A stretch of 64,000 nt of DNA from positions 192,001-256,000 of the forward strand of contig CAWDYC010000005.1 in assembly GCA_963806535.1 (NCBI GenBank), given 5' to 3'. The notes below the pieces were generated by a model, which was not told where the DNA came from, made no database searches, and saw nothing but the letters and a program-made list of their open reading frames with translations. Source of the stretch: Candidatus Bathyarchaeota archaeon (lineage in GTDB: Archaea; Thermoproteota; Bathyarchaeia; Bathyarchaeales; Bathycorpusculaceae). This document shows, piece after piece, positions 7,351 to 22,500 of this stretch. The stretch's first letter is position 1, and every line of letters begins with the position of its first letter. The translations under genes were made by a program, and so were the position numbers.

Positions 7351-7394
7351 CGTTCCGCTTTGGAACAGCACTGTTCCGTCAGCAGAGCTAATAG
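7351..7394 (+). promoter_or_regulatory. putative operator/promoter: GTTC-N7-GAAC (7352-7366), GTTC half-site (7373-7376), weak TATA CTAATAG (7388-7394)
   Basis: Same architecture recurs at 11549-11601 (-) and 11723-11776 (+). Confidence 0.65.
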
Positions 7395-7429
7395 GTACTT
7401 GAAGCTTAAGCCAAAGCAAGTGAATAACA

Positions 7430-8515
7430 ATGAAAATCGGAATCAAACTATTTGCAGTAGCAATCCTCTCGTTAACAATGGGAATTGCATGCGCTTCGCC
7501 CCTATTAGTCTCGGAGTTGAACATTAGACCCTACATAAATTATGTGCAAGGACAAACTGCACCATTCAACATCAACGTTGTCTACGCCAACTTTACCATA
7601 CAAAACGCAGACAAGCCAGTAGAACTAAACAGTGGACCAACTATATCCTACTTTGCAATAGTAAACATAACCAACCCTTCTAACTTGGTCGCTACGCTTA
7701 CAATACTTACCTTTGAGGCTGCGCCAGAAATACTTCAGATTCCATCATCGATTCAAAATGGTTCCATTGCTTACGAAGCCCCAGGCGCTTGGGTTGATGG
7801 CAAATATTACAATCTGACCTGGGTTGACACTTCATCGCCATACTTGGGTGAAAACGGCAAGTTGTCAGAGTTTAAAATTGCTTCTCCGTATTGGATGCAA
7901 GGTGTGCAAGTATTTGATACATATGTTAACGGCAACGTTACTTCTTCATATCTAAACATGAATGGAACATGGACCAACGTAACTGGTCAAATTGAAGTGG
8001 CAAGACAACCTATAGGCAGCGAATACTCATCAGCTGGTACAACAGAAGTTGTTTTTAACCAACAAGGCTTTTCGAACGATCCAAGCGAGAACTACTCAAG
8101 CAATGGCATAATATTTGATCCGTCTGCCTCTCAACCTTTCGGACCAATAAGCTTTACCAATCATTTTGTAGGTCAAGGGTTTTTCAACAATTCTTGGAAA
8201 CCACATCAGTCCCGCTTAGTAGCAATATCTGGCAGTTGGCAAGTACTTGCATCCTTGGGGGCGAAAGACAGACCGGTGAAAGCGATACAGGCAGGCACCC
8301 TTACATTTATGACCCAAACTGACAACTTCGTAGATTTATCAGCTCCCGTGAATAATACTGTGATAAATACATCGTCTCATGACATTGAACTTAAACAAGT
8401 GCAGCTAACGCCGAGTGGCAACAGCTATCTCTATAATCCACTATCGCTCGATAACCGAGCATTCCAAATCGACAAATGGGGCGTCGAAGCAACCTTAAGG
8501 AGCCAAACGTCATGA
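7430..8515 (+). CDS. N-anchored/secreted Asn-Thr-rich protein (module A extracellular component)
   Basis: N-terminal hydrophobic anchor, many N-x-S/T sequons, shares N- and C-terminal motifs with 10672..11514. Confidence 0.85.
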   Translation: MKIGIKLFAVAILSLTMGIACASPLLVSELNIRPYINYVQGQTAPFNINVVYANFTIQNADKPVELNSGPTISYFAIVNITNPSNLVATLTILTFEAAPEILQIPSSIQNGSIAYEAPGAWVDGKYYNLTWVDTSSPYLGENGKLSEFKIASPYWMQGVQVFDTYVNGNVTSSYLNMNGTWTNVTGQIEVARQPIGSEYSSAGTTEVVFNQQGFSNDPSENYSSNGIIFDPSASQPFGPISFTNHFVGQGFFNNSWKPHQSRLVAISGSWQVLASLGAKDRPVKAIQAGTLTFMTQTDNFVDLSAPVNNTVINTSSHDIELKQVQLTPSGNSYLYNPLSLDNRAFQIDKWGVEATLRSQTS

Positions 8516-8997
8516 CCAACACTGAAAGCGATGAGCTTGAAGGCAACACTCTTAACGTGTATGCTTTTGTGGTCAAAGAAGGTAAACCAGTTGGACCACG
8601 GGAAGTAATGCGGGGCGCTAACCTCAGTGGCCCAAGTACCGCTTATCGGCAGCTTCAAAAACTCGAATCTCTTGGATTAATTCAGAAAAACGTTTACGGG
8701 GCATACGTGGTCAAAGAGAAAGCAAGCGTGAGCGGGCATGTGTGGGTGGGCAGAAACCTCGTACCGCGTCTATTATGTTATTCCATCTTCTTCTTTGGAA
8801 TCTTAAGTGTTGAAGTTACTATCTTGGTTGTGCAATTCTTTTCTCAAGGTCGAACACCTAGTTTAGCAGTTATGTATCTAGCGCCTATTACCGCTATATC
8901 AGCCGGGCTCTTTTTAGTTGAGGGGTTACTGTTGTTTAGAAAGAATAGGCCAAGTAGCGCTTCAAAAGATTACTTTGACGATGAAAAACATATCTAA
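8512..8997 (+). CDS. membrane-anchored winged-helix transcription regulator (module A)
   Basis: ATG 8512 overlaps the upstream TGA. wHTH (VGPREVMRGANLSGPSTAYRQLQKLESLGLI) followed by two hydrophobic helices. Confidence 0.85.
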   Translation: MTNTESDELEGNTLNVYAFVVKEGKPVGPREVMRGANLSGPSTAYRQLQKLESLGLIQKNVYGAYVVKEKASVSGHVWVGRNLVPRLLCYSIFFFGILSVEVTILVVQFFSQGRTPSLAVMYLAPITAISAGLFLVEGLLLFRKNRPSSASKDYFDDEKHI

Positions 8998-9033
8998 TCA
9001 CCTCTGCCACAAGAGAATCATAGTGATTCAAGA

Positions 9034-9216
9034 ATGAAAACAAGAACTTCGAATCGGCGCAAACAATCGAACTCCAAGTATCAAATAGCGGGAGTCCTCT
9101 TCGGCTTGGCAGGTTTGGGACTAATCGCAGTTTCCTCAATAAATTACATGCTTATCTTCGTTGGCATCGGACTCATAGCCGTTGGCATCTATTACTTCAT
9201 GGACAAAATACTTTAG
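9034..9216 (+). CDS. small membrane protein (2 TM)
   Basis: Basic N-terminus then two Gly-rich hydrophobic helices. Confidence 0.6.
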   Translation: MKTRTSNRRKQSNSKYQIAGVLFGLAGLGLIAVSSINYMLIFVGIGLIAVGIYYFMDKIL

Positions 9217-9329
9217 CGGGTCTCTTCTGATAATGCAGAATTGTTTTCTCAAAAATTAGATTAGTTGCTTATGGAAAGCGGAAAATGTTTAAATGTTGTT
9301 TGGAACAGCAATATTAAGAGCAGAGCGAA

Positions 9330-9405
<76 letters not shown>

Positions 9406-9467
9406 CATTAATCTTTAAGAGCCGCTGCGAAATGGGGAGGGCTAATTCGCAACAAAATTACAAAAAT

Positions 9468-9965
9468 ATGATGGATGAATCTGTCAAACGACATCAATTT
9501 TCAATAGGTTTGTTGCTGGTTTTTTTCGGAGTAGCTGACTTATGTTTTGTTATGCCAAATATGTATGCTGGGTTGGTAGGAGATTGGCATATTGATTGGC
9601 GTTCTTTAAACTTATACAAGCAGCAATGGACCTTTACCGTTCCTCTCCTTCTAATTACGACCCTGATTGGAACCTTAATGCTAAGCCTATATTGCATAAG
9701 AGGCATTAAACCAGAAAGTGTTAACAATAAACAAAATGCTGCAATTCTGGTAACGGCTCTAGGATTCACATATCAAGTGATTGGCGCATGGCCAATTTGG
9801 AATTTTTGGTATCCATGGCCTTGGCAAGCAGAAATCGCAAGTTATGGCAACTGGCTTGTTTTTCCACTTTTCATCGGTAGCATAGTTGTATTGTTAACTG
9901 GAGCCGCATCTTTATACATTCATAGCAACATATACCACAAAACGCAAGCTACTTTGACAACTTAA
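9468..9965 (+). CDS. hypothetical membrane protein (about 4 TM, Trp-rich)
   Basis: Hydrophobic segments. Start moved downstream of the tRNA because the track start at 9375 overlaps it. Confidence 0.75.
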   Translation: MMDESVKRHQFSIGLLLVFFGVADLCFVMPNMYAGLVGDWHIDWRSLNLYKQQWTFTVPLLLITTLIGTLMLSLYCIRGIKPESVNNKQNAAILVTALGFTYQVIGAWPIWNFWYPWPWQAEIASYGNWLVFPLFIGSIVVLLTGAASLYIHSNIYHKTQATLTT

Positions 9966-9986
9966 TTGCCTAAATTTAACCTGTTT

Positions 9987-10202
9987 TTACAAGGAAATAT
10001 TCAGTGAAAAATGCGGTCCAAAAATTCTTACGGGGAGAGTGTTTTTATCTTTTCTGCAATGTTGTTTGCCTGCCTCAACTTTGACTACGGGTGCAACTTT
10101 GATGATGGGGTTTCCGTTAGTATCGTAGTCAATCGAGAGGCCATATTCCGTTTTTGTATTCAGTATTAATTGAATCGCAGTAAGTATCTCTTTATTGCCC
10201 AT
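9987..10202 (-). CDS. small hypothetical protein
   Basis: ATG 3 nt after the stop of the module B regulator. No recognisable motif. Confidence 0.45.
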   Translation of the reverse strand: MGNKEILTAIQLILNTKTEYGLSIDYDTNGNPIIKVAPVVKVEAGKQHCRKDKNTLPVRIFGPHFSLNISL

Positions 10203-10205
10203 ATA

Positions 10206-10658
10206 TCACTTCAGCTCCGCATGCTTTGGATTAAGTTTCCCATAAAGCAATAATCCTTCAATTAAAAACAGAATCATTGCCACAGCAGTCATTCCGGTTA
10301 AGAAAAAGAAGCTTGTTTGGATAACTATAGCTTTTATTAGATAGCTTAACAATATAATTGCTATCTCGGCGGCGAATGCGCCTAGAAAAAAGAAGGAATA
10401 AAACATCAACCTTGGCACGAGGTTTTTGCCGACCCACACGTGCCCGTTGATGCTTGTTTTCTCTTTTAGAATATAGTTGCCATACTCGTTTTTCTCAATT
10501 AACCCGAACTCTTCCAGCTTTTGCAGATGCCTGTGAGCGACGCTTGTACTGCTAAGATTTGCTCCTCTTGTGACGTCTCTTGTGCCTACAGGTTTAGCGA
10601 CACGCACAATGTATGCATAGACATTTAATGTGTTGCCTTCAAGTTCTTCGTTAGCCAA
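10206..10658 (-). CDS. membrane-anchored winged-helix transcription regulator (module B)
   Basis: Clear paralogue of 8512..8997 (ELEGNTLNVYA, KPVG.R.V.RGANLS, LQKLE..GLI, GHVWVG.NLVPRL) plus 2 TM. Confidence 0.88.
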   Translation of the reverse strand: MANEELEGNTLNVYAYIVRVAKPVGTRDVTRGANLSSTSVAHRHLQKLEEFGLIEKNEYGNYILKEKTSINGHVWVGKNLVPRLMFYSFFFLGAFAAEIAIILLSYLIKAIVIQTSFFFLTGMTAVAMILFLIEGLLLYGKLNPKHAELK

Positions 10659-10671
10659 AGTTGCCGCATCC

Positions 10672-11514
10672 TTAAGGTTTGGTTTGCGTGTTAAAAGGGG
10701 ATCCTAAGTTGGTTTGTGAAAGTTGGTCTTGAGGTATCATGGTGTTGTAAAGAAATCCTCCGTTATATGGTGTGAGTTCTATATGTTGGATAATGGTGTT
10801 GTCTGCTGGGGTAGTTATAGTTGAGTTGGCTTCGATTGTAATGTAGCCTAGTCTTCGTATATCAATGGATATTGTGTGGGCATTTTCGATGTTTCCTGTT
10901 TGTTCCCGCTGAATGTCAATCCAACTGCTTGTCATGTTTATGCCTTGTAACGCAAAAACTGTATAATTTTCGTGGATATCTGATTTTGCGGGGGTTGCGA
11001 GTTTTCCGTTGAAGTTTGGTAGAAACAGAAAATAGTTGTAGGTTGGAAAGCTGTTGTTAAAGTATTGTTGTTGAGTGATAGCTTGTGAACCTGTTGTTAA
11101 AGTATTGTTGTTGTTAAAGTAGGTTTGAAGCCCGTTGAGCCATGTGTTATATGGGTTAATAGAGCCTGTACAGTTGGCGCCGATAAAGTAAGTCCAGTTT
11201 TGAATTGATCCTTGGTCAGAATAAACTTGTATTTGGTAGAATTCTATTCGACTGTTTGGGAGCGTTTTTATAGCGTCAGCATTTGTGGTGACTTTAAGCT
11301 CTACGTAGTATGCTTCAGCGAAAGTTGTATTTCCCGGTTTTGTTGTTGTGTCTGCTATCCAGTAGGCGTAAGGTACACTAAGATTAAACCATGGGTTCTC
11401 CTGTGACGTTGATGCTTGGGCGCCTCCTGACATAAAGAATTCTAGTGGCACTATTGAAGCAATTCCTATAGCTATTGCTAGAATTCCGCATAGTATCAGT
11501 TTTTTCTCAATCAT
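10672..11514 (-). CDS. N-anchored/secreted Asn-Thr-rich protein (module B extracellular component)
   Basis: MIEKKLILCGILAIAIGIASIVPL anchor. WFNLSVPYA and IELTPYNGGFLYN match motifs of 7430..8515. Confidence 0.85.
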   Translation of the reverse strand: MIEKKLILCGILAIAIGIASIVPLEFFMSGGAQASTSQENPWFNLSVPYAYWIADTTTKPGNTTFAEAYYVELKVTTNADAIKTLPNSRIEFYQIQVYSDQGSIQNWTYFIGANCTGSINPYNTWLNGLQTYFNNNNTLTTGSQAITQQQYFNNSFPTYNYFLFLPNFNGKLATPAKSDIHENYTVFALQGINMTSSWIDIQREQTGNIENAHTISIDIRRLGYITIEANSTITTPADNTIIQHIELTPYNGGFLYNTMIPQDQLSQTNLGSPFNTQTKP

Positions 11515-11548
11515 TGGTTTTACGCCGCTCTATATTCCCTCAAGGCAG

Positions 11549-11601
11549 CTAATAATTCTCTCCCAAGAACAAAACATCTCCAAAGTGTTCTCAAAGAGAA
11601 C
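11549..11601 (-). promoter_or_regulatory. putative operator/promoter of module B: GTTC-N7-GAAC (11587-11601), half-site (11567-11570), TTATTAG box
   Basis: Reverse complement aligns with 11723-11776. Confidence 0.72.
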
Positions 11602-11722
11602 GGTCTCAAAAGAAGACTTACAGCTATCCTGTAGAGCGATTCACAACTTACCAAGCGGAAATGCCTTAGTATGCTCCAAGACTGCCTTTGCTGGCAAATC
11701 TATCGGCAGACATGCGTAATCT

Positions 11723-11776
11723 GTTCTTTTTGAGAACAGTTAGGGCGCAAATGTGTTCTTCGGGGAGAATTATTAG
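11723..11776 (+). promoter_or_regulatory. putative operator/promoter of ABC operon: GTTC-N7-GAAC (11723-11737), half-site (11755-11758), TTATTAG box
   Basis: Third copy of the architecture. Confidence 0.72.
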
Positions 11777-11867
11777 CCGCTTTACTGGTTGGTTTAGCGG
11801 TGAAAAGTCAAATGAAGCATTACAAAACCAACTATAACCTTCAAAGAGATTTTTTGGGGGAAATTAC

Positions 11868-13193
11868 TTGGGAATCTTAACAAGGGCATTCAAAAATATC
11901 TCAAGGAGGAAAACCCGCTCACTCTTAGTTATTGTTGCATTGAGTCTTGCTTTAACACTGCTAATTATTTTGCCGCCAAGCATCAGCGCAAGCCAAGCAA
12001 CCACCAAACAAACAATTCACAACTTAACAGATAGCGCTTATATGATGGGTTCAACTGTAACTTTGGCAGCAACCGAAATAGACTGTAACATGGGCACCAA
12101 TTTTAGCTTTGCAGATTACCTGCCGGGCGGCACTTACTGGAACACCACCGCTACCCCGTTTATTCAATATAATACCTTTAACATCAGCGATTACTCAGGA
12201 TTAAGTGGCATCACAGACATCAAAACGGTGGTGCCCATTATTCATCAAAACGTTGAGGAGAACAAGTACGGTTCAGTCTATGGCATACCGTTAGATAACG
12301 CTTCTCTGCTCAAAGATTACCCGTCAATTTTGTCCGCGAACATTTCGCAAGGACGCAACCTTGAGGCTGGCGACATCGGCGTAGTTATAGTGCAAGAACG
12401 CTTAGCCAAAATCTTAAATGTTAACGTCGGCCAAGACCTTGCGCTTTCAGGGAAAAACTTCAAGATTGTAGGCATTGAAGGCACAGAACCAATCAATACA
12501 ACCGACATCACCATGAGCTTAATCGACGCCCAACTGCTAACCAATACAACTGGACAAGCCTCAGGATTCAAAATCTTTGTCGACAACATAAACAACGTAA
12601 ACACAGTCGAGTCACGCATCAAAAGCGACTACCCCAACCTGCCCGTTACGCAAGTTGGCTTATCTTTAGTTAACACAGCTCAGCAAGTGCAAGCCCAAAC
12701 CGACCAGCAAATAGCGGCAGCGCAAAACACCCTAAACCAAATACAAAACATCGGAATAGTGGAGATAAGCATCGCTGTTGTCGCCGACGCCGCCATAGTC
12801 CTCTTTATAATGCAGTACAGTGTCAGGGAGCGAACCAAAGAGATTGGTACCTTCAAAGCCATGGGCGCTGGTAACACAACGATTCTTGGGCAGTTCTTGT
12901 TTGAAGGCATACTGCTTAGCCTCGTCGCTGTCGTAATCGCCTTGGCTGCCGATGCAGTCAGCGCAACAACCTTAGCCAATCTGCTGTTGCCTCATCCTGT
13001 TGAATCCGGACAAAACTACGTTATGTCGGCAAATGGGCATCTGACCATTTTGCCAGCCATCGTCGTCAACATGACGCCGCAGCTTATTCTCGGCGGTGTA
13101 GGCTTTGCAGTCGTATTAGGTGCTGTTGGAAGTTTGTATCCGGCTTTGAAAGCGGCAAGAACCAGACCAGCGCAGGCGATGAGATATGAATGA
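11868..13193 (+). CDS. ABC transporter permease, MacB/FtsX family
   Basis: RAFKNISRRKTRSLL, large extracellular loop, SVRERTKEIGTFKAMGA, GSLYPALKAARTRPAQAMRYE. Confidence 0.92.
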   Translation: MGILTRAFKNISRRKTRSLLVIVALSLALTLLIILPPSISASQATTKQTIHNLTDSAYMMGSTVTLAATEIDCNMGTNFSFADYLPGGTYWNTTATPFIQYNTFNISDYSGLSGITDIKTVVPIIHQNVEENKYGSVYGIPLDNASLLKDYPSILSANISQGRNLEAGDIGVVIVQERLAKILNVNVGQDLALSGKNFKIVGIEGTEPINTTDITMSLIDAQLLTNTTGQASGFKIFVDNINNVNTVESRIKSDYPNLPVTQVGLSLVNTAQQVQAQTDQQIAAAQNTLNQIQNIGIVEISIAVVADAAIVLFIMQYSVRERTKEIGTFKAMGAGNTTILGQFLFEGILLSLVAVVIALAADAVSATTLANLLLPHPVESGQNYVMSANGHLTILPAIVVNMTPQLILGGVGFAVVLGAVGSLYPALKAARTRPAQAMRYE

Positions 13194-13914
13194 TTCAGTT
13201 TTAAAAACTGAGAACCTAACCAAATCGTACAAGCTTGGCAAACGAGACGTGCAACCCCTGACCAACCTGAACCTTGAAGTGGCAAAAGGCGAGTTCGTAG
13301 CTGTCATGGGTCCCAGCGGCAGCGGCAAAACCACTCTGCTCAACATCATTGGCTGTATCGACAGGGCAACAAGCGGCAAAGTCTTCCTGGACGGCGTGGA
13401 CGTCGCGCAACTGCCCGAATCGCAGTTGTACAAGATACGCCGTGACAAAATCGGCTTCATCTTCCAAAACTTCAACCTTGTACCCTACCTCAACGCCCGC
13501 GAAAACGTGGAGTTGGCCATGGAGCTTGCAGGCAAATTCCCGAATCAAAGAAAAGACAGAGCCAAACAGCTTCTTGCCACTGTAGGTTTATCAGGGCGAG
13601 AACAACACCGACCTCAACGGCTAAGCCAAGGAGAACAGCAACGAGTCGCTATAGCCAGAGCCTTAGCTAACGACCCTGCCATCATTTTGGCTGATGAACC
13701 TACAGGAAACTTGGATGCAACCAACAAACAAGAAATTGTAAAACTTCTATCTGACCTTAACCAGAAACAAGGCACAACCATCATAATGGTAACGCACGAC
13801 GAACAAGTGGCGGGGCAGACACAACGTATGCTATACCTCAGTGAAGGAAGAATTGTCCAAGACAAACAAGCCCAAAGCAGTCAACCGCAAACAAAGGAGC
13901 GCTCTCAACAATGA
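13186..13914 (+). CDS. ABC transporter ATP-binding protein (LolD/MacB type)
   Basis: [36 protein letters not shown]. Confidence 0.95.
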   Translation: MNDSVLKTENLTKSYKLGKRDVQPLTNLNLEVAKGEFVAVMGPSGSGKTTLLNIIGCIDRATSGKVFLDGVDVAQLPESQLYKIRRDKIGFIFQNFNLVPYLNARENVELAMELAGKFPNQRKDRAKQLLATVGLSGREQHRPQRLSQGEQQRVAIARALANDPAIILADEPTGNLDATNKQEIVKLLSDLNQKQGTTIIMVTHDEQVAGQTQRMLYLSEGRIVQDKQAQSSQPQTKERSQQ

Positions 13915-15107
13915 AACCATCAGCGACCAAAACAGTGGGTGTATGCTGCATCCTTCTCTTCCTGTTTCTTTGCGTTTTTACTTTCCTGCCTTACACGGCT
14001 CACGCATCTTCCGATGCGTCGGCAACGGTGACTGTAGGCGGTACTCCTTTTTCGGTGGCTATAACCCCTGACGGCAAGTACGCCTATGTTCCTATTTCCG
14101 ACAAGATTTCGGTGATAGATACGGCTGTGAACAGGGTTACGGCGACAGTGAACGTTAGGGGCTCTATGGGTATAGTCATAGCGTCTGATGGCAAATATGC
14201 CTATACTATAAATTCAGTTCAAGACCCTAAAGCTGGCACTGCAAATTTTGTCTCGGTCATAAGTACCACTACAAACAAGGTAACTAAGACAATACCCCTT
14301 GATGGCAACCCTAATGGTTTAGCCATAGCGCCAAACGGTGAATACGTTTATGTGGCTGAAGGCGACGAGAAAAATGGTAACATCGGTTATGTTGCGGTTA
14401 TTAGCACAGCCACCAGCCAAGTTAAGGCGGCGGTAGCTGTTACAGGCACTTCTCAGGCCGTAGCGGTAACCCCCAATAGCCAATACGCGTATGCGGCATG
14501 TCAAATCAACGCAGGCAGCGGCGAGGTTTCAGTGATAGATACGGCTACGAATACGGTCGCGGCGACGATTCCTGTGGGGTTGGGTCCTCAGAGCTTGGCT
14601 GTAACACCCGACGGCGCACATGTTTATGTCACAAATCAAGGTAACAATTCAGTGTCGGTGATAAACACAGCTAGCAATACCGTGACGGCGACGATAACGG
14701 GTTTAAGTTTTCCTTACGGTGTAGCTTTAACCCCAAACAGTGAATATGCTTACGTTACCTGCCAAGACCTTGACAACTGGGCTGGCTTAGCTTCAGTGAT
14801 AGATACAGCCACAAACAAAGTAACGGCTACAGTAAACCTTGTTCAATACCCATACGGCATAGCCATAACTCCAAATGGAGACTACGCCTATGTCGCAGAT
14901 GGCGTTAACGGCACATTATCCGTGATAAACACCGCGGATAACCAAGTGCTACCTGTTTCTTCCCCTGAACCAGAAAACCCAAGTTTCCCTGCTCAATGGC
15001 TAATAATCACTATAGTTGCAATTGCCGTTGTTATGATAGGCGTAATTGCTTCTGTTGTTTTTAAGAAAAAACAAAAAAGCCAAGCTGACCGGAGCCGAAA
15101 CGTATGA
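13911..15107 (+). CDS. YVTN/YncE-type beta-propeller surface protein with C-terminal TM anchor
   Basis: About 7 repeats of P.G.A.TPDG.YAYV / VSVIDTATN.V.ATI, signal peptide, C-terminal TM plus basic tail. Confidence 0.92.
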   Translation: MKPSATKTVGVCCILLFLFLCVFTFLPYTAHASSDASATVTVGGTPFSVAITPDGKYAYVPISDKISVIDTAVNRVTATVNVRGSMGIVIASDGKYAYTINSVQDPKAGTANFVSVISTTTNKVTKTIPLDGNPNGLAIAPNGEYVYVAEGDEKNGNIGYVAVISTATSQVKAAVAVTGTSQAVAVTPNSQYAYAACQINAGSGEVSVIDTATNTVAATIPVGLGPQSLAVTPDGAHVYVTNQGNNSVSVINTASNTVTATITGLSFPYGVALTPNSEYAYVTCQDLDNWAGLASVIDTATNKVTATVNLVQYPYGIAITPNGDYAYVADGVNGTLSVINTADNQVLPVSSPEPENPSFPAQWLIITIVAIAVVMIGVIASVVFKKKQKSQADRSRNV

Positions 15108-16417
15108 GTATACTGAGCCGAGCAGTAAGAAACATCACCAGAAGAAAAACACGGTCGCTCCTTGTGATATTGGCTTTGAGTTTCGCCTTGGCGATGATAA
15201 TCTCTATCCCTGCAAGCATTGCCGCAAGCAAAGCCACCACTCAGCAAACCATTGATAACTTAACAGCCAATGCCAGAGCAGTTGATGACACGATAAATCA
15301 GGTGGCAAGGGAAATAGATTGCCAGCTTCCAGGGGTTTCTATTCCTGATTCAGGACCTAATCACGATGAAACCGTCGTTGAACAACCTCTTATGAACATA
15401 ACCGATTATTATGATAACATCACATCAACTTCGCATGTGGTCAGCGTCATACCCATACTTGATCAGGTAGAATACAGTGGCAACTTTGCATACAACGTCT
15501 ATGGCATACCATTGGATAATGGCACTTTGCTAGATGATTATCCATCGATTTTGCCCTCGAACATCACCTCTGGGCGAAACCTGCAGGCAGGTGATACTGG
15601 CGTGATTGTTCTACAGGAGCGTCTTGCACAAAACTTGGGTGCAACTGTTGGTGGAACAGTTAACATTTTAGATGAAGCCTTCAAGGTTGTAGGTATCGAA
15701 GGCTACACCCCAATAAGCGAAACCGCCGCATACATGAGTCTATGTGAAGCCCAAACCATAACTAACAATGTTGGAAACGCAACCAGCCTCAAAGTGTTCG
15801 CCGACAGCATCAGCAACGTACAGGATATTTCTCAAAGCATCGGCGCCAACTTCCCCAAATTATCCGTTTCAATAGCCGCAACTTTGCTGGATTCAATTGA
15901 CCAGATGCAAACCCAAACTGCCCAGCAACTTCAAAACGCAAAAGCAACCATGGATCAAATCCAAAGCGCTGGTACAGTTGAAATAGAAATTGTTGTCATT
16001 GTAGCCGGGGCAATCGTATTTTTCATCATGCTATACACCGTGCGTGAACGGACAAGAGAAATCGGAACCCTCAAAGCTTTAGGCGCCAGCAACATAGTTA
16101 TTTTGGGGCAGTTTATGCTTGAGGGCATACTGCTAAGTTTAATCGCAGGTTTAGTCGGCATTGCAATCGGAGTATTCGGCGCAACATCCCTTGCCAACCT
16201 GCTGCTTCCACACCCAGCTCAAGCCATCAACACTTCAAATTCAACAGCGGGCGTAACCATTCCAACTTCTACGTCAGCAGCTATCTCTGTAACCGTTACC
16301 CCTGAACTTGTGCTGCTTGGCTTAGTTGCTGCAGTATTGTTAGGCGCAATAGGCAGTTTGTATCCCGCGTGGCGAGCAGCAAGAACCAGACCAGCAGAGG
16401 CCATGCGATATGACTGA
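15104..16417 (+). CDS. ABC transporter permease, MacB/FtsX family (paralogue of 11868..13193)
   Basis: RRKTRSLLVI, VYGIPLDN, TVRERTREIGTLKALGA, GSLYPAWRAARTRPAEAMRYD. Confidence 0.92.
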   Translation: MSILSRAVRNITRRKTRSLLVILALSFALAMIISIPASIAASKATTQQTIDNLTANARAVDDTINQVAREIDCQLPGVSIPDSGPNHDETVVEQPLMNITDYYDNITSTSHVVSVIPILDQVEYSGNFAYNVYGIPLDNGTLLDDYPSILPSNITSGRNLQAGDTGVIVLQERLAQNLGATVGGTVNILDEAFKVVGIEGYTPISETAAYMSLCEAQTITNNVGNATSLKVFADSISNVQDISQSIGANFPKLSVSIAATLLDSIDQMQTQTAQQLQNAKATMDQIQSAGTVEIEIVVIVAGAIVFFIMLYTVRERTREIGTLKALGASNIVILGQFMLEGILLSLIAGLVGIAIGVFGATSLANLLLPHPAQAINTSNSTAGVTIPTSTSAAISVTVTPELVLLGLVAAVLLGAIGSLYPAWRAARTRPAEAMRYD

Positions 16418-16539: not shown

Positions 16540-18240
16540 ATGTCAAAAAATACCCTAAACCTAAAACCAAAGCAAGCAATAACTCTTTTTCTTGCTTTTC
16601 TCTTGGTTCTTAGTTGTTTTGCTGATGGAGTAAGATTTGCTGGTGGAGAAACGACCATTTTCTCAACGCAGACAGATGGTTCTGCCACGGCAATAGCCGC
16701 TTTGGAAAACAGCATAGAGGATAATGGCGGTTGGAACAGTAGTTTGCAAACGATTTATGACGGCATTGCTTTAGGTCAAACAACGGTTAATCAGCTTCAG
16801 AATGCAGTGGATTCGATTAGCATTTCTTCTGCGTCCGCGGCTGAGTCCGTGTTTTACTGGTATTTTCAACTGAGCAAGTTCGGCGTTAGTATTAACGCAA
16901 CAACGATAGAGGCAGCGTTAAATGAAGCAACAATGCTGCCTAGCGTCGGCGGGTTACCTCACGATTACTCTAACTCGGGCACTGCATCTTTTGAGGTCTA
17001 CAACAGATACGATTTGTATGCTTATCAATGGGCTGCCCAGCTGGGCTACGAGACTTCCAAATGGAACCTAACTCAAGCCTACACAGTTTTCGACAATGCT
17101 ATCAACGAATCCGGCAAGCCTATTCTTTGGGTGGGTTGTAACGGTAAAGGTTCAGGCATAGGCTATGGGCCTAGATACTATGATGAGGGTGCTGAGACGA
17201 TTGACATGTACCTGACGTTTTGGTTACTAGGAATACCTGGTGGGTTAACGCAAGCCGAATATTGGTGGAACTGGGAAAACCTGCATCTATGGGATGCCAA
17301 CGACAGCGGCGACGGAGGCTTCTACAAATATGCAATCAATTGGACTGCCTTTGAATGCGAGGCTGGCGGGTTAGACCAGATAATTTGGAAACTCTATAAC
17401 TATGATCCATCAATACAAAATGTAACTAATTTATTCACTGACATGGAAACAAGAGCGCTTAGCCAAGGTTGGAGTAGCCCCCAGTGGGCTGACAATGTTG
17501 CAGTGCATGCGTCAGGCGTGAACGGCAGTGCCATCAACTCGCAGGAGCGGTTGGAAAACACAATTATGTCTTGGGCAGCCATACTTGGACTTTACGGTAA
17601 CATGACTGGCACAATGCAAAGTCAAGTGCAAGCCCTGTTAGATGGCTCGGCAGGTTCCGCTCCAGCGTGGAATCTAACATTGCAAAGCAAATTGTACGAT
17701 AACGATACAGACCTGTTCAAAGGCATCTCCGATGCTTCAGACAGTGTTGAAGATACAGCGGATGGCGCTGCCTTATTGATGCTGTTGTCTACGGTTCCAG
17801 TGACAGGTTCGTTGGCGGTGCCTTTGCAAGATTGCACTTATCAAGATATTAACGGGGTAATTGACGGTGGAGTCAGCAGCATAGACCTTGCAAGTAGAAC
17901 TGTAATAGTAAGCGTTGCCAAGCCAGGAACATTTCTATCCTTGTTTGGAACAGACATTTTCGAATATAATATTAGTACTGCAGGTGTTTGGCAGCTAACT
18001 TTCGGCAACAACTGGAACAGCATTACCTCCCAAACCTTTGTATCCACGCTGCCTAGCTCAAGAATATATATTGGTGTCGTAGGCTCCACGCCTTTATCCG
18101 CTTCAACCCCAACAATCTCCGCAATTTCAGATCCACCAGTGTACAACGCTGAGTTTCCATCAATAGCTATAGCTTTAATGATACTTTTGGCAGTTTCAGC
18201 AACAATATCAGTCTTTATTAAAAAACGGACAAACAGATAA
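16540..18240 (+). CDS. secreted surface protein with PEF-CTERM-like anchor, function unknown
   Basis: Signal peptide, W/Y-rich core, S/T/P linker, AEFPS + TM + KKR tail. Confidence 0.85.
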   Translation: MSKNTLNLKPKQAITLFLAFLLVLSCFADGVRFAGGETTIFSTQTDGSATAIAALENSIEDNGGWNSSLQTIYDGIALGQTTVNQLQNAVDSISISSASAAESVFYWYFQLSKFGVSINATTIEAALNEATMLPSVGGLPHDYSNSGTASFEVYNRYDLYAYQWAAQLGYETSKWNLTQAYTVFDNAINESGKPILWVGCNGKGSGIGYGPRYYDEGAETIDMYLTFWLLGIPGGLTQAEYWWNWENLHLWDANDSGDGGFYKYAINWTAFECEAGGLDQIIWKLYNYDPSIQNVTNLFTDMETRALSQGWSSPQWADNVAVHASGVNGSAINSQERLENTIMSWAAILGLYGNMTGTMQSQVQALLDGSAGSAPAWNLTLQSKLYDNDTDLFKGISDASDSVEDTADGAALLMLLSTVPVTGSLAVPLQDCTYQDINGVIDGGVSSIDLASRTVIVSVAKPGTFLSLFGTDIFEYNISTAGVWQLTFGNNWNSITSQTFVSTLPSSRIYIGVVGSTPLSASTPTISAISDPPVYNAEFPSIAIALMILLAVSATISVFIKKRTNR

Positions 18241-18262: not shown

Positions 18263-18742
18263 TTACTGATTTACTTTTAGAACTAGCTCCGCGACTCTTT
18301 TACCTAGTGTTTCGCATTCGGTAAGGTCTTCTTTTGTTGGTGCACCTGTAACGGCGACGCCGTAGTGTTTGTCATCTGCTCTACCCTGTACAATCACCCC
18401 GTGAATCAACATCGCATGTACAATGGACAGAAGCGTGGTTTCGCCGCCTGAAGCGGTTCCACCGCTGCTTGTGAAAGCGCCGCCAACCTTGCCTGTTAAG
18501 TTTTTTGTGAACTTTTATTGAGTCGTCGATGACGGCTTTGAGTTTGGCTGACATTTGCCCAAAATATGTCGGCGACCCCATAATTATGCCGTCAGCTGCA
18601 AGAAGGTCGCTGCTTTTTGTTTGCTCTGCTCTCTTCGCTGTCACTTCTACGTCGCCTGCCTTTTCTGCTCCTTTGCCACAGCTAAAGCCATCTTTTCAGT
18701 GTTACCCGACCTTGAATTATAAACAACCAAGGTTTTCGGCAT
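18263..18742 (-). CDS. flavodoxin/WrbA-like protein, broken by two compensating indels (probably sequencing error)
   Basis: MPKTLVVYNSRSGNTEKMA / AADGIIMGSPTYFGQM / GKVGGAFTSSGGTASGGETT joined across shifts near 18672 and 18497. Confidence 0.8.
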
Positions 18743-18746
18743 AGTT

Positions 18747-19310
18747 TCACTTCACTATTTCCTTGATTACGTCGTTAACCATCATTATTTTGGCGTTGTA
18801 AACGTTTTCTAAGTATTTTAGACCTTGTTCTTGGTCTTCTTTAGTGAATGCTTCTACCCCATCTTCTGCGATCACTATGTGATAGCCTCGGAAATATGCG
18901 TCAGCAGCCGTGTGTCGTACGCATGTGTGAGCGTGTAAACCGCCGAGAACCACCGTTTTTGCTCCTTCGCCGTTGTAGAGGCTGCGAAGAAGTGGGTCCA
19001 AACCTGTTTCAAAGAAACCGCTGTAAGTTCGCTTCTCAACTATGTAATCCTTGCCTTCTTCGGACTTAAGCTCAGGAATAACTTCTGCACCTTTGGTTCC
19101 TTTTATGGCATGGGTGCCCCATTTTCTAGCAACCTCAACATCCTGAGGATAATGGGCGTCATTGCAATAAATAACTGGTACATCGTTTTTGCGGGCAGCC
19201 ACCACTAGTCTTTGTAGCGGCGGAATAACGGTTTTTGCGCGATTAACTTCTAAGGCCCCTATGAAAAAATCATTTAATAAATCAATAAGTATGATAGCTG
19301 GCTTATCCAA
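18747..19310 (-). CDS. isochorismatase-family cysteine hydrolase
   Basis: IDLLNDF, EKRTYSGF, HTCVRHTAADA triad D-K-C. Likely TTG start at 19310. Confidence 0.9.
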   Translation of the reverse strand: MDKPAIILIDLLNDFFIGALEVNRAKTVIPPLQRLVVAARKNDVPVIYCNDAHYPQDVEVARKWGTHAIKGTKGAEVIPELKSEEGKDYIVEKRTYSGFFETGLDPLLRSLYNGEGAKTVVLGGLHAHTCVRHTAADAYFRGYHIVIAEDGVEAFTKEDQEQGLKYLENVYNAKIMMVNDVIKEIVK

Positions 19311-19362
19311 AAATTTTTCACTCTCATCTAGATAAATTCCTGAGATGCTTTTTAGTTTTACT

Positions 19363-20433
19363 TTAACGAGAGGTTTCCAGCGAGTAGGGTCCGATCGTAA
19401 GCCTCTCAGCACCTTGCTGAGTTACTAGAACAGTGTCTTCAATTCTGACTCCGCCATATCCTGGGAGATAAATTCCAGGCTCATCTGTCACCAAATTGCC
19501 TGGGGTTAAAATGTCTTTGCTGTCAGGGCTCAGTATAGGTGCTTCATGAATTTCCAAGCCTACCCCATGTCCAAGGTTATGAACAAAATACTCGCCAAAA
19601 CCTGTCGCTTCAATTACATTCCTTGCTGCAGCATCAACCTCTTTTGCCTGAACGTTAGGTTTTATGGTTTCAAAGGCCTTTTGCTGTGATAGCTTCACAG
19701 TCTCATAGATTCTTTTTTGCTTTTCAGAAGCCCTTCCAGCTATGAAGGTTCGAGTCATGTCAGAGCGGTAAAACTTGTAGGTTGCCCCTATATCCACCAC
19801 AACCAAATCGCCATTCTTTATTGTTCGGTCTGAACAGGAACCATGAGGAAACGCTGAGCTCGCACCTGAAGCAATTATTGTTTCAAAAGCCGTTCCGTCT
19901 GACCCCTTTTTGCGCATTGCATATTCAACTTCAGCTGCTATGTCCTTTTCTTTCATGTCAGGAAGGATGGTTTGGGCCGCCACTTTCATACCGATATTTG
20001 TTAATTTGCATGCTTTGCGGATGAGCTGGATTTCCTCCTGGTCTTTCACTTTTCTCAATTCACGAATAAAGTTGTTGGCGGGCTTAAGTTTTTCTTCTCC
20101 GCCGAATATTTTGGCTAATGTTTGCCAAAATTCAATTGAAACTGAATCAACTGCCAGTTTGGTCGTTTTTTTGGGTACTTCATAGTTTGAAATTTTTTCT
20201 ACTAAATTTTCACCGCGTTTAAGGAGTTCCACAATCAAACCGCTTGTTTCTGCTTTTGCTTGCTCATAGTTAACGGCTGAAACATAAAGGATGCTTTCGC
20301 CTTGATCAGGAATTAGAAGCGCTGTCGCTCCGGCAAAGTCTGTGAAGTAAGTTAAGTTGGAACCGTTAAAAATTAGAAAACTATCAAATTTCTCTTTAAC
20401 CATTTTTTGCTGAAGGCAACTTATTCGGTTCAT
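19363..20433 (-). CDS. Xaa-Pro aminopeptidase (M24 family)
   Basis: FPHG, VDIGA, SDMTRT, HNLGHGVGLEIHE, DEPGIY, GVRIEDT. Confidence 0.95.
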   Translation of the reverse strand: MNRISCLQQKMVKEKFDSFLIFNGSNLTYFTDFAGATALLIPDQGESILYVSAVNYEQAKAETSGLIVELLKRGENLVEKISNYEVPKKTTKLAVDSVSIEFWQTLAKIFGGEEKLKPANNFIRELRKVKDQEEIQLIRKACKLTNIGMKVAAQTILPDMKEKDIAAEVEYAMRKKGSDGTAFETIIASGASSAFPHGSCSDRTIKNGDLVVVDIGATYKFYRSDMTRTFIAGRASEKQKRIYETVKLSQQKAFETIKPNVQAKEVDAAARNVIEATGFGEYFVHNLGHGVGLEIHEAPILSPDSKDILTPGNLVTDEPGIYLPGYGGVRIEDTVLVTQQGAERLTIGPYSLETSR

Positions 20434-20610
20434 GGAGTTCGCCTGCTTACCAAAGGGAAATGTTTTGGTAGGTTTAAATTTTCGCTTCTTTCTTGCGTTA
20501 TGTAATTAAAAACAAGTCGTTTTTAGTCGAGAATTTTTAGATGAATTAGCCATTAACTTAATATACGGTTTAGATGACTTCCATAATCAACGATTTGAGG
20601 GGAAAAAAGC

Positions 20611-22500
20611 ATGTTCTCTTATGCTGGAAAAATTTTACATGTTAACCTCACAACAGGCGAAACAAAGACAGAGCCATTATCAGAAGATATGGCTAAAAGT
20701 TACATTGGCGGCATAGGGTTAGGCATACGTCTTCTCATGGACAATTCAAAACCAGGCACAGATGCCTTTGACCCAGATAACCCATTGATTTATTGCACTG
20801 GTCCACTAAGTGGCACCATGGGTCCAACCGCAGGAAACGGCTACGCTGTTGTTTCTAAATCGCCAGCCACAGGCGGAGTAGGTGAAGGAAAAGCACACGG
20901 GTTCTTCGGTCCAGACCTTAAACGTGCAGGATACGACGCAGTCGTCATCAAGGGCAAAGCACCAAAATTATCTTACCTTTGGATTGACGATGACAAAGTT
21001 GAAGTCCGAGACGCAACGTACCTTAAAGGCGCAACCGTTAACGACACAGATAACAAAATCCGAGATGAACTCGGCGACTTTTACATTCGTGTTTCAGCCA
21101 TCGGCGAAGCAGGAGAAAAACTTTGCAGGTTTGCAGCCATAATAAATGACGAGTTCCGCGCTATCGGAAGAAGCGGCATGGGCGGAGTTATGGGCTCAAA
21201 AAACCTCAAAGCAGTTGCTGTCCGTGGAACGCATGACGTTAACGTAGCAAACCTTGAAGGATTCAAAGAATTTATCAAAATGATCCATGAACGCATGAAG
21301 GGTCCAGCAACCAAAAAATACAAGACCTTGGGAACACCCGAAAACGTTTTGGTGCTTAATTCACTCTCAGCCTTAGCCACAAGAAACTGGACTAACGCAA
21401 CTTTTGAAGGAGCAGACAAAGTCAGCGGCGAATACTTAAACGAGCATTATGTAAAGAAAATTGTGGGTTGCGCAACCTGCGGAATGCGTTGCGACCATAT
21501 TGCTGTGGTTCCAGAAGGACCATACAAGGGCTCAACTTCAAGGCTTGAGTTCGAATGCCTTTGGAGCATGGGACCACTTTGTGGTGTTGACCGATTAGAT
21601 GCAGTTATTGAAGCAATGCGAATCGTCAATGAGTACGGAATGGACGGCATTTCCATTGGCGTCGTTGTTGCATTTGCGATGGATCTCTATGAACATGGCA
21701 TAATAACAAAAGAACAAACTGATGGAATCGACCTTCGCTTCGGAAATGCCGAAGCCTTAATCGCCATGATACATAAAATTGGCAAACGTGAAGGCTGGCT
21801 TGGCAACATCCTTGCTGAAGGAGTAGCTAAAGCTGCTGAATTAATCGGCGGAGACGCATACAAATACGCTTGCCACATCAAAGGCTTAGAACTGCCTGGC
21901 TACGATTTGCGAACATTAAAGACTGCGGCGCTTGGCTTCAGCGTCAGCTTCCGCGGTGCGTGCCACCTAAGAAACGGAGCTTACTCACCAGACGTGAAAG
22001 GCAAAGTAAACCGTTTCAAAATTGAGAAAGGCAGGGGCAAAATGATTACTGATGAAAGTCTCATGTATAACATCATTGACTCACTTATAGTATGCAAATT
22101 CAGCAGAGGCACATACTACGACGGCTGGAAAGATCTATCTAACTACTACACTTTAGCCACAGGTATCCCAATTACAGTCGAAGAAATGGCCAAAGCCGGA
22201 GACAGAATCGAAAACTTAGCCAGGCTCTTCAACATTCGAGAAGGCAAAGGCACACGCAAATACGACGACGTACCATACAAGATAAAGAATTTTCCAGTAC
22301 CTGATGAGGGACCAGCCAAAGGCGTTTGTGTCAGTGATGAAGAAATGGCTGTAGGCTTAGATGACTATTACGCTTCAAGAGGATGGACAGTTGAAGGCAT
22401 TCCAACAATTGAGCGCTTGCAACAAGTAGGTTTGGGCGAATTAGCATACATCGCAGAGAACGCAATGAAAGCTGAAGCAATGGTTCAAGGAGGAAACTAA
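20611..22500 (+). CDS. tungsten aldehyde:ferredoxin oxidoreductase (AOR family)
   Basis: SKSPATG, GRSGMGGVMGSKNLKA, CATCGMRC, RGACH, DSLIVCKF, YYASRGW. Confidence 0.95.
   Translation: MFSYAGKILHVNLTTGETKTEPLSEDMAKSYIGGIGLGIRLLMDNSKPGTDAFDPDNPLIYCTGPLSGTMGPTAGNGYAVVSKSPATGGVGEGKAHGFFGPDLKRAGYDAVVIKGKAPKLSYLWIDDDKVEVRDATYLKGATVNDTDNKIRDELGDFYIRVSAIGEAGEKLCRFAAIINDEFRAIGRSGMGGVMGSKNLKAVAVRGTHDVNVANLEGFKEFIKMIHERMKGPATKKYKTLGTPENVLVLNSLSALATRNWTNATFEGADKVSGEYLNEHYVKKIVGCATCGMRCDHIAVVPEGPYKGSTSRLEFECLWSMGPLCGVDRLDAVIEAMRIVNEYGMDGISIGVVVAFAMDLYEHGIITKEQTDGIDLRFGNAEALIAMIHKIGKREGWLGNILAEGVAKAAELIGGDAYKYACHIKGLELPGYDLRTLKTAALGFSVSFRGACHLRNGAYSPDVKGKVNRFKIEKGRGKMITDESLMYNIIDSLIVCKFSRGTYYDGWKDLSNYYTLATGIPITVEEMAKAGDRIENLARLFNIREGKGTRKYDDVPYKIKNFPVPDEGPAKGVCVSDEEMAVGLDDYYASRGWTVEGIPTIERLQQVGLGELAYIAENAMKAEAMVQGGN

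Follow-up and report, generated by a model that had tools for sequence, protein, structure and literature searches.

The locus described here raises the question of how a membrane-bound transcription factor with no sensing domain receives its input, and what part the exported protein encoded beside it may play. The window is the whole 64,000-nt stretch that was analysed (C5:192001-256000), taken from a Candidatus Bathyarchaeota assembly of 2.95 Mb with a completeness of 91.75%. The list of open reading frames (ORFs) contains two convergent two-gene modules at 7430-8997 (+) and 11514-10206 (-). Each module consists of a gene for an exported protein, here called the partner, followed by a gene for a winged helix-turn-helix (wHTH) protein with two C-terminal transmembrane (TM) helices, here called the regulator. 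An earlier note on this DNA had described two facing paralogous modules of this kind, and the ORFs agree with that description; regulators 1 and 2 showed 53% identity (E 6e-59). The same note read the modules as a ToxRS-like co-component system, in which the extracellular protein senses an outside cue and signals to the wHTH-2TM protein, and in which the regulon includes an envelope-stress ATP-binding cassette (ABC) exporter. We consider it rather probable that the modules are autoregulated operons of an exported protein and a membrane regulator with paralog-specific operators, and that the ABC operon was added by the copying of a promoter.

Operon linkage and paralog-specific operators

One genome per species was scanned, giving 257 relatives, and the best 80 were taken. 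All of these 80 were module-2 orthologs, and nearly all were labelled Bathyarchaeia or Bathyarchaeota. The survey of gene neighbourhoods showed that a partner 2 homolog lies directly upstream of the regulator in 78/80 loci. The two unlinked loci are one with only 124 nt of upstream sequence and L147, whose adjacent ORF gave no match. Among the partners of the 80 loci, three are short, at 88-139 aa, and a contig end truncates one. All module-1-type and module-3-type loci keep the partner-regulator linkage, and the pairing proposed from the window was thus borne out in other genomes. The linkage was also found in earlier smaller samples, and the locus tags are adjacent in public annotation. The flanking genes vary while the pair stays one operon. 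The regulators share 62-91% identity and the corresponding partners mostly 24-50%.

The pattern GTTC-N7-GAAC has three matches in the 64 kb (7352, 11587 and 11723) against an expected 0.77, and three matches are reached by 4 of 100 shuffles. All three sites fall in promoter regions, namely those of module 1, module 2 and the ABC operon, and these three promoters align with one another. The claim that all three carry the same palindrome holds for the GTTC/GAAC core, which is common to them. It does not hold for the whole element, as module 1 has GTTCC..GGAAC and module 2 and the ABC operon have GTTCT(C/T)..GAGAAC. This difference between the modules is conserved in other genomes.

A strict GTTCY-N5-RGAAC was found within 200 nt upstream of the partner gene in 70/80 module-2 loci, and four further loci have a variant palindrome with N8 spacing or one altered arm. 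Six of the 80 loci had no site by this locus criterion; two of them lie at contig ends, and L147 does carry the palindrome, with promoter and start present, although the criterion missed it. The footprint of the 70 promoters reads TGTTCTY-N3-RAGAACA, a spacer, a third half-site TGTTCTT, GGGAG-AATTATWW (B recognition element (BRE)/TATA), about 25 nt, and GCGGTGAAAAACCAA-ATG with a GGTGA Shine-Dalgarno sequence. The palindrome arms hold 1.6-2.2 bits of information per position and the centre 0.04-0.07 bits. The distance from the start of the GTTC core to the start codon was 77-82 nt in 39 promoters, 86-90 nt in 22, 96-101 nt in eight and 107 nt in one. The longer spacers hold extra GGAACA half-sites in steps of about 10-11 bp, and this periodicity suggests binding along one face of the DNA.

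The specificity of the operators was compared in 63 regulator ORFs from 59 stretches of this genome and related genomes; two stretches of this genome overlap, and modules 1 and 2 are counted twice. Clade A (module 2) has the recognition helix LSSTSVAHRH, partner 2-type genes and the element GTTCT(C/T)..(G/A)AGAAC. Eight of its 11 loci carry the strict site, one has an altered arm, and two with the helix HYH pair with GTTCTA-N4-TAGAAC. Clade B (module 1) has the helix LSSPSTAYRQ, with the variants LSGPSTAYRQ in window regulator 1 and LSSPSVAYRQ in L166, and is linked to partner 1-type genes. Its palindrome, GTTCC-N5-GGAAC in 5/5 loci, stands 75-78 nt upstream of the partner 1 orthologs, and a third half-site precedes the BRE/TATA likewise in all five. 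Clade C (module 3; C5:123640-125323 in this genome) has the helix LSSPSVAYWH, partners of 343-439 aa and N8 palindromes in 8/9 loci, mostly GTTCTA-N4-TAGAAC. The element order (palindrome, spacer, half-site, BRE/TATA, GGTGA, ATG) is common to clades A, B and C. Clades D and E showed no such partner and no GTTC..GAAC site upstream, with the exception of L180, where a site stands before an unrelated upstream ORF.

Arm bases 5-6 covary with the recognition helix in four variants (GTTCTC, GTTCC, GTTCTA and GTTCGG). In clades B and C, the palindrome arms and the third half-site agree in their specificity bases, and in L196 both arms and the third half-site are all GTTCGG. Because the recognition helix and arm bases 5-6 change together, each paralog appears to have its own operator, and since helix and operator diverged jointly, the two modules of the window would be insulated from each other. 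The single regulon supposed in the earlier note therefore gives way to separate operator variants, with the ABC operon assigned to module 2 alone. The joint change of the recognition helix and all three half-sites is the strongest available sequence evidence that the adjacent regulator is the protein that binds.

The uniqueness of the sites points the same way. A position weight matrix (PWM) was built from 69 orthologous sites with a true-site range of 17-31 bits, and the genome (2.95 Mb) was scanned with it. Only two genome sites fell in the true-site range, one in the module-2 promoter (27.8 bits) and one in the ABC promoter (27.4 bits); the next match (18.8 bits) lies inside an ORF. The module-1 type GTTCC-N5-GGAAC is a single site in the genome. 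GTTCTA-N4-TAGAAC has three sites, all intergenic, which precede partner 3, the exported protein encoded downstream of module 3, and a paralog of that protein on C10. Of five other genomes, four have a single perfect 17-mer, at the module-2 promoter, and the fifth has two, the second of which stands before a broken second module. One-mismatch matches to the 17-mer number 2-7 per genome in these five, against 1-4 for the reversed control. Given this uniqueness in its own and five other genomes, the conserved regulon of module 2 is, judging by sequence, its own operon. The modules look autoregulated through the palindrome, as the earlier note had proposed.

These results also bear on a reading in which some other, soluble factor binds the palindromes and the wHTH-2TM protein is not their cognate regulator, or no DNA binder at all. 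DNA binding by the wHTH-2TM protein is a prediction, and its Pfam HTH matches are sub-threshold, which gives this reading some ground. A separate factor would nevertheless have to account for arm bases 5-6, and the third half-site too, tracking the recognition helix of the adjacent gene in four variants. It would also have to account for a perfect site that is unique to the module's own promoter in 4/5 other genomes, with the second copy in the fifth at a broken second module, and the predicted fold is a canonical wHTH. We regard such a factor as very improbable.

A related motif, GTTCY-N6-RGAAC (N8 spacing), is over-represented in the genome, with 26 sites (e.g., C4:377792, C4:506177, C6:81274, C8:126627, C10:87705 and C11:94602). 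Of these, 15/26 lie outside ORFs; the background is 22.5%, and other spacings give 0-25%. Genes for surface or membrane proteins with a signal or TM segment begin within about 130 nt (most at 46-90 nt) downstream of at least 10 of the 15 intergenic sites. Through such sites, other members of the regulator family may control a broader set of surface-protein genes. The genome also encodes a second set of membrane-bound regulators, unrelated to the first, at C4:372766-373470, C4:378980-379657 and C4:380805-381539, all on the (-) strand. They have an ArsR-like N-terminal HTH followed by 4-5 TM helices; one of them neighbours an N-anchored protein, and an N8 palindrome lies 134 nt upstream of one.

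Regulator, partner and proposed input through the membrane

The AlphaFold2 model of regulator 2 (predicted local distance difference test (pLDDT) 75.6) shows helices H1-H2-H3 and a beta-hairpin wing in residues 9-64. An uninterrupted helix (71-107) runs from the cytoplasm into TM1 and is followed by a 7-residue loop and TM2 (115-142). The model and the TM prediction place the C-terminus of the hairpin in the cytoplasm and leave no ectodomain. Foldseek placed the head among IclR, Sso10a, YodB and MarR-type winged helices (probability 1.00, E about 0.01); an E value of this size is expected for a small domain. Pfam gave only sub-threshold matches of the regulators to IclR, LexA, TrmB, MarR-like and RNase R winged-helix (HTH_12) models, NCBIfam gave nothing, and a profile of the regulator family against PDB sequences gave weak matches at best (MJ223, E 0.033; LrpC, E 0.098). 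On this model, the regulator is a winged helix tethered to the membrane, with neither a kinase nor an ectodomain, in agreement with the kinase-free output that had been proposed. The fold model and the TM helices place it in the general class of transmembrane transcription regulators, which are defined by a DNA-binding domain and at least one TM region. Three parts of the protein are conserved across distant paralogs. In the recognition-helix scaffold, S36, S39 and A41 are invariant; in the LVPR motif ahead of TM1, L80 and P82 are invariant and R83 is near-invariant; in the membrane hairpin, Glu98 (TM1) is near-invariant and Glu134 (TM2) is invariant.

The regulator belongs to a large family of 842 clusters at 50% identity (E <= 0.001), or 550 clusters at E <= 1e-10. 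Among the best 150 of the 842 clusters, most proteins are 130-190 aa long and match most of the profile; the others include shorter fragments and a few longer forms. The family was found in 39/41 relatives and in 173/301 genomes sampled across the phylum (E <= 1e-8). Most taxonomic families have one copy, and the window's own family and one other have 4-10. The genome of the window has eight members, one of them broken by TAG, and an exported protein is encoded directly upstream on the same strand in 4/8. The broken member, at C7:49411-49846 (-), is split by the TAG into ORFs of 133 and 60 aa, and interrupted copies also occur in several relatives. Twelve phylum-level loci were retrieved, and the gene was recovered by ORF search in 10. 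In 9/10 of these, the regulator was most like C4:539411-539857 of the window's genome, a member found across the phylum (loci L223-L233) and mostly in single copy. It is followed by a small protein of 79-115 aa with TM segments at both ends in 5/10 loci and by a 617-aa N-anchored protein in one, and the family member lies between grpE and dnaK in 3/10. At C4:539411-539857, the downstream gene looks fragmented into several frames. Judging from the sequences, adjacency to some exported or membrane protein is common in the family, and the neighbours are mutually non-homologous.

Partners 1 and 2 gave a weak BLAST match (E 0.003), and profile-profile comparison (hhalign) gave 94% probability and E 1.3e-7 over the N-terminal 76 columns. 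On this sequence evidence, they are distant paralogs. Neither partner matched a family in Pfam or NCBIfam. The model of partner 2 (pLDDT 73, predicted template modelling score 0.69) begins with a helix (3-20), which a disordered linker joins to a beta-sandwich with long hairpins. Foldseek found no match for this model in PDB at E <= 0.001, and a wide VIA search gave generic Ig/FN3-like sandwiches with a best Z of 5.9 or less. Neither a sensor fold nor a lipocalin was recognised by Foldseek or VIA, and this is not evidence of a new fold. The partner 2 family is small, with 73 matches, and those with a source name are all labelled Bathyarchaeia or Bathyarchaeota. Its mean pairwise identity is 73% in the N-terminal 28 residues, 42% in residues 29-280 and 29% in the middle.

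The N-termini of all three partner types, read by eye, show small residues at -3/-1 (GIA|S, ACA|S and AFA|A) after a hydrophobic stretch of 10-14 residues. They may be signal anchors or cleavable signal peptides. Of the membrane-anchored partner described in the earlier note, the N-terminal hydrophobic helix is retained, and the anchor is one of these two possibilities. A type IV pilin-like identity was also considered. The class III signal peptide of prepilins carries [KR]-[GA] ahead of the hydrophobic helix. The partners begin MIEKK-LIL.., MKIGIK-LFA.. and MDFKYK-LIV.., with no G or A after the basic residues, and the pilin-like identity was dropped for the lack of this cleavage motif. A complex prediction of regulator 2 with partner 2, run without controls, scored 0.00 (mark 0.32) and speaks neither for nor against binding.

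We favour a mechanism in which each module would be a self-contained, autoregulated two-gene operon. The first gene would encode an exported, glycosylation-rich beta-sandwich protein with a fast-evolving ectodomain and a conserved N-terminal hydrophobic helix. The second would encode a minimal transmembrane regulator made of a MarR/IclR-like head, one continuous helix and a two-helix hairpin. The head would be cytoplasmic and would bind the 15-17 bp palindrome, most likely as a dimer, together with the third half-site abutting the BRE/TATA. The regulator would probably activate its own operon, most likely by aiding the recruitment of transcription factor B and the TATA-binding protein; repression by occlusion of the BRE would be the alternative. 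Sites upstream of the BRE are typical of archaeal activators. ArnR is an example of an activator with a site upstream of the promoter (PMC6396743).

As the regulator has no sensing domain, its input would have to come through the membrane hairpin, and the rigid helix from the wing to TM1 would offer a direct path from hairpin packing to the geometry of the two heads. We prefer the possibility that the regulator reads the N-terminal helix of the co-translated partner. The partner would then act as a co-sensor, or the contact would provide feedback on the amount of partner in the membrane. An intramembrane contact seems the most economical arrangement because the N-terminal helix of the partner is conserved, two glutamates are kept in the membrane, and the operon linkage is unbroken. 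We tentatively extend this proposal to the family, as a possibility more than an expectation: a family widespread in the phylum and expanded in Bathyarchaeia might, without a sensor domain, read the N-terminal helix or the cleaved signal peptide of a co-translated partner within the membrane. This would be a kinase-free, single-protein inventory control, which new genes could join by copying a promoter of about 100 bp.

Several points weigh against this mechanism. A signalling system with itself as the only conserved target is unusual. Cleavage of the signal peptide may leave the partner N-terminus no stable neighbour in the membrane. About half of the examined members have no partner (4/8 in the window's genome, and clades D and E), and the hairpin must therefore be able to work without one. 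The mutually non-homologous exported neighbours fit a regulated cargo as well as a co-sensor. The sign of regulation is argued only from the position of the site relative to the BRE/TATA, and DNA binding and partner contact are both predicted.

We think it rather doubtful, although worth weighing here, that the partner is a mere regulated product, such as a surface protein or adhesin, and that the regulator is a one-component factor that reads the membrane state or another cue with no specific contact. The partner-less members are what such a reading would expect, and so are the module-3 operator copies before the downstream exported protein and its paralog and the enrichment of GTTCY-N6-RGAAC outside ORFs, with most sites 55-90 nt before surface-protein genes. 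ArnR, an archaeal factor with an HTH and two TM helices, likewise regulates surface structures (PMC6396743). A regulated product with no contact leaves unexplained, however, why the N-terminal 28 residues of the partner are far more conserved than the mature part, and why the pair forms one operon in 78/80 loci amid varying flanks. Reading of the partner's N-terminal helix by the regulator accommodates both observations and remains our preferred mechanism.

The copied ABC promoter and the surrounding genes

Upstream of the MacB/FtsX-type ABC operon, the promoter of module 2 is repeated in inverted orientation and serves as the promoter of that operon; the copy extends from the palindrome to include the Shine-Dalgarno sequence and the ATG. 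The region 11515-11867 is an inverted duplication with arms at 11514-11571/11754-11811 (58 nt, 71% complementary), and a second inverted-repeat pair lies at 11580-11601/11723-11744 (22 nt, 86% complementary). The copied ATG at 11812 opens a 22-codon upstream ORF (11812-11880, +), which overlaps the TTG start of the permease (11868) in another frame.

In four relatives, the genes that follow partner 2 encode a flavodoxin, an isochorismatase-like protein, an M24 peptidase and an aldehyde:ferredoxin oxidoreductase; these four stand at 18381-22500 in the window. Because synteny is conserved on both sides of about 6.7 kb, the ABC operon and the gene for a 566-aa surface protein (16540-18240) are an insertion. 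The G+C content is 0.46-0.48 in the insertion, 0.40-0.42 on the side of the modules and 0.44 past the other end. The ABC operon stands beside module 2 in 0/12 other genomes. Within the stretches retrieved from 40 relatives, the palindrome was found in 0/29 homologous ABC loci, whose products are <=59% identical and not clearly orthologs. From these sequences, we read the ABC operon as regulon growth by promoter duplication in this strain and not as a core property of the system. In this genome only, the inserted operon would have been placed under the module-2 regulator by the inverted promoter copy. The proposal that the system drives an ABC exporter is therefore kept for this genome, where the site is nearly as strong as that of module 2 (27.4 vs 27.8 bits), and is not kept as a general link, which is absent in 12/12 genomes and 29/29 ABC loci. 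No support was found for a role in envelope stress.

The ToxRS-like reading can be weighed at this point. The pair is tightly linked and co-oriented, the N-terminal helix of the partner is conserved, the ABC promoter of this genome has a full-strength site, and distant family members stand 1-3 kb from MacB-type ABC operons in two further genomes, all of which is in keeping with it. The partner also evolves fast, as is reported for co-components of the ToxS/VtrC type (PMC9214523). Four results run contrary to it. According to the model, an outside loop of 7 residues makes an ectodomain heterodimer of the ToxR/ToxS kind impossible; Foldseek and VIA recognised no sensor-type fold in the partner; the conserved regulon is the operon itself; and the ABC link is missing at 12/12 other module-2 loci and 29/29 homologous ABC loci. 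We consider that this reading is unlikely.

Two observations concern the ABC operons and the insertion border. In L219 (G006:C211) and L220 (G020:C30), family members with 35-41% identity lie 1-3 kb from MacB-type ABC operons in the gene order of the window, and the L219 regulator is again preceded by an overlapping gene for a small protein with an N-terminal TM segment. A loose recurrent association between the family and ABC operons is possible. At the border of the insertion, the flavodoxin ORF (18381-18644, -) encodes 87 aa with an Arg-rich, frame-shifted-looking tail, compared with 160 aa in relatives, and is either a pseudogene or an assembly error.

The modules stand in conserved synteny: elongation factor 2 (EF-2), a glycosylase-like gene, [module 1], a gene for a 196-aa membrane protein, module 2, flavodoxin, the isochorismatase-like gene, M24 peptidase and aldehyde:ferredoxin oxidoreductase. 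A mobile or defence-island reading was dropped on this account. The 196-aa protein (9375-9965, +) has three predicted TM segments and no family in Pfam or NCBIfam. It keeps its place by module 2 in several relatives, in the order EF-2, glycosylase-like gene, 196-aa gene, module 2. A scan for bacterial sigma-70 promoters and terminators was not above shuffles; the model is bacterial and is the wrong one for an archaeon.

The coordinates of the features are collected in the table below. The start of regulator 1 was set at the ATG at 8512 by comparison with orthologs, which begin MANLE..ELEGNTL, and this ATG overlaps the stop codon of partner 1 as ATGA. The gap between partner 2 and regulator 2 is 13 nt. 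The first ~45 residues of the 71-aa ORF are kept directly after the regulator in 16/80 orthologous loci, and in close relatives module 2 may include this ORF as a third cistron.

Table. Genes, putative operators and promoter elements of the two modules and the ABC operon, in window positions.
Feature	Position	Strand	Description
Module-1 operator palindrome (putative) GTTCCGCTTTGGAAC	7352-7366		GTTCC-N5-GGAAC type
Module-1 third half-site TGTTCC	7372-7377	+	5 nt past the palindrome, just upstream of the BRE/TATA-like box AGAGCTAATAGG (7384-7395)
Partner 1	7430-8515	+	Exported, 361 aa; N-terminal hydrophobic helix or signal peptide; many N-x-S/T sequons
Regulator 1	8512-8997	+	wHTH and two C-terminal TM helices; 161 aa from the ATG at 8512; ORF open from 8476
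Small ORF, 71 aa	9987-10202	-	Starts 3 nt past regulator 2; possible third cistron
Regulator 2	10206-10658	-	wHTH-2TM, 150 aa; near-invariant Glu98 in TM1, invariant Glu134 in TM2
Partner 2	10672-11514	-	Exported 280-aa beta-sandwich protein (predicted); highly conserved N-terminal 28 residues
Module-2 core promoter	11550-11571	-	TATA-like AATTATTA (11550-11557) and proximal half-site TGTTCTT (11565-11571)
Module-2 operator palindrome (putative) GTTCTCAAAGAGAAC	11587-11601		Kept in 70/80 orthologous loci; PWM 27.8 bits
Module-2-type operator palindrome (putative) in ABC promoter GTTCTTTTTGAGAAC	11723-11737		PWM 27.4 bits
Copied ABC promoter body	11754-11814	+	TGTTCTT (11754-11760), AATTATTA (11768-11775), GGTGA Shine-Dalgarno, ATG 11812
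MacB/FtsX-type ABC operon	11868-16417	+	Divergent from module 2; genome-specific addition to the module-2 regulon
ABC operon genes 1-2	11868-13193; 13186-13914	+	Permease; ATPase
ABC operon genes 3-4	13911-15107; 15104-16417	+	YVTN beta-propeller with signal and C-terminal TM; second permease

Relation to known systems

To our knowledge, cultures exist for few Bathyarchaeia and gene regulation in the group has had no direct study, which gives these operons their interest; they may reveal a way in which exported proteins of Bathyarchaeia control their own synthesis by feedback. Inventory control, if true, would tie the transcription of the gene for a fast-evolving surface protein directly to the export of that protein. 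The operons also offer natural specificity variants, in which helix and operator changed jointly, a natural case of regulon growth by promoter copying, and a handle on how an archaeal factor acts on the BRE/TATA from the membrane.

Membrane-bound transcription factors are counted by the thousand in archaea. The census of Demey et al. 2023 reports 1,384 transmembrane transcription regulators in 367/404 archaeal species, about 4 per genome (PMC10269533), and their general build, a DNA-binding domain with one or more TM regions, is that of the regulators described here. The regulator family, which has no Pfam or NCBIfam model, adds a compact and uncharacterised family that now has a defined putative operator and promoter architecture. 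The census relies on recognised models of DNA-binding domains; the head of this family falls below the Pfam cut-offs, and the family may be missing from the census.

In the full-text literature searched, with subscription journals largely outside it, we found no description of the regulator family or of an archaeal pairing with an exported partner, and among archaeal membrane-bound transcription factors only ArnR was found to have been studied. ArnR and ArnR1 of Sulfolobus acidocaldarius are membrane-bound one-component activators (PMC6396743). The earlier view that no characterised archaeal system is comparable thus has to be narrowed: ArnR exists as a protein with an HTH and two TM helices, and what has no described counterpart in the literature searched is the pairing with an exported partner. 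By its architecture, ArnR is the closest archaeal precedent. Both are from Thermoproteota and have an N-terminal HTH, two C-terminal TM helices and no ectodomain. Both have a 15-bp inverted repeat of the form 5-N5-5 upstream of the promoter, TCGAC-N5-GTCGA for ArnR and the putative GTTCY-N5-RGAAC here, and the control of genes for cell-surface structures is a further likeness. In ArnR, a HAMP-like domain and a sensing domain separate the HTH from the TM helices; the 150-aa regulator here has in their place a linker of ~20 residues in one helix. In the passages of PMC6396743 consulted, ArnR is not described as co-encoded with an exported partner.

The proposed reading of the partner helix has a parallel in bacterial pili. 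In Pseudomonas aeruginosa, PilS was reportedly proposed by Kilmury and Burrows in 2016 to read the N-terminal hydrophobic helix of the pilin PilA and so to tune the pilA gene itself. That system, too, combines a membrane sensor without a large ectodomain and an exported protein with a conserved N-terminal helix and a variable globular domain. It differs in that PilS is a histidine kinase acting via PilR, whereas the putative sensor here is itself DNA-binding, and in that the partners here are without the [KR]-[GA] prepilin motif. Inner-membrane pools of PilA are treated in PMC6058289.

Like the modules of the window, ToxR/ToxS, VtrA/VtrC and TcpP/TcpH are two-gene cassettes in which a kinase-free transcription factor tethered to the membrane is joined by an exported partner with a gene of its own; the two genes lie side by side or overlap, and the extracytoplasmic component is fast-evolving (PMC9214523). 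According to that source, the regulators of those systems carry an HTH of the CadC/OmpR type and a single TM helix, followed by a periplasmic alpha-beta domain that forms an obligate heterodimer with a lipocalin-like partner (an eight-stranded barrel) encoded downstream. The regulators here gave no CadC/OmpR-type match in Pfam. They are modelled without an ectodomain, as a MarR/IclR-like wHTH joined to a two-TM hairpin. The partner gene lies upstream, its product is modelled as a beta-sandwich, and any contact with the partner must be within or at the membrane. The modules thus fall outside the ToxR/ToxS group by their type of DNA-binding domain, by having two TM helices and no ectodomain, and by their gene order. 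The system of the window is best described as analogous to ToxRS and not as a member of it.

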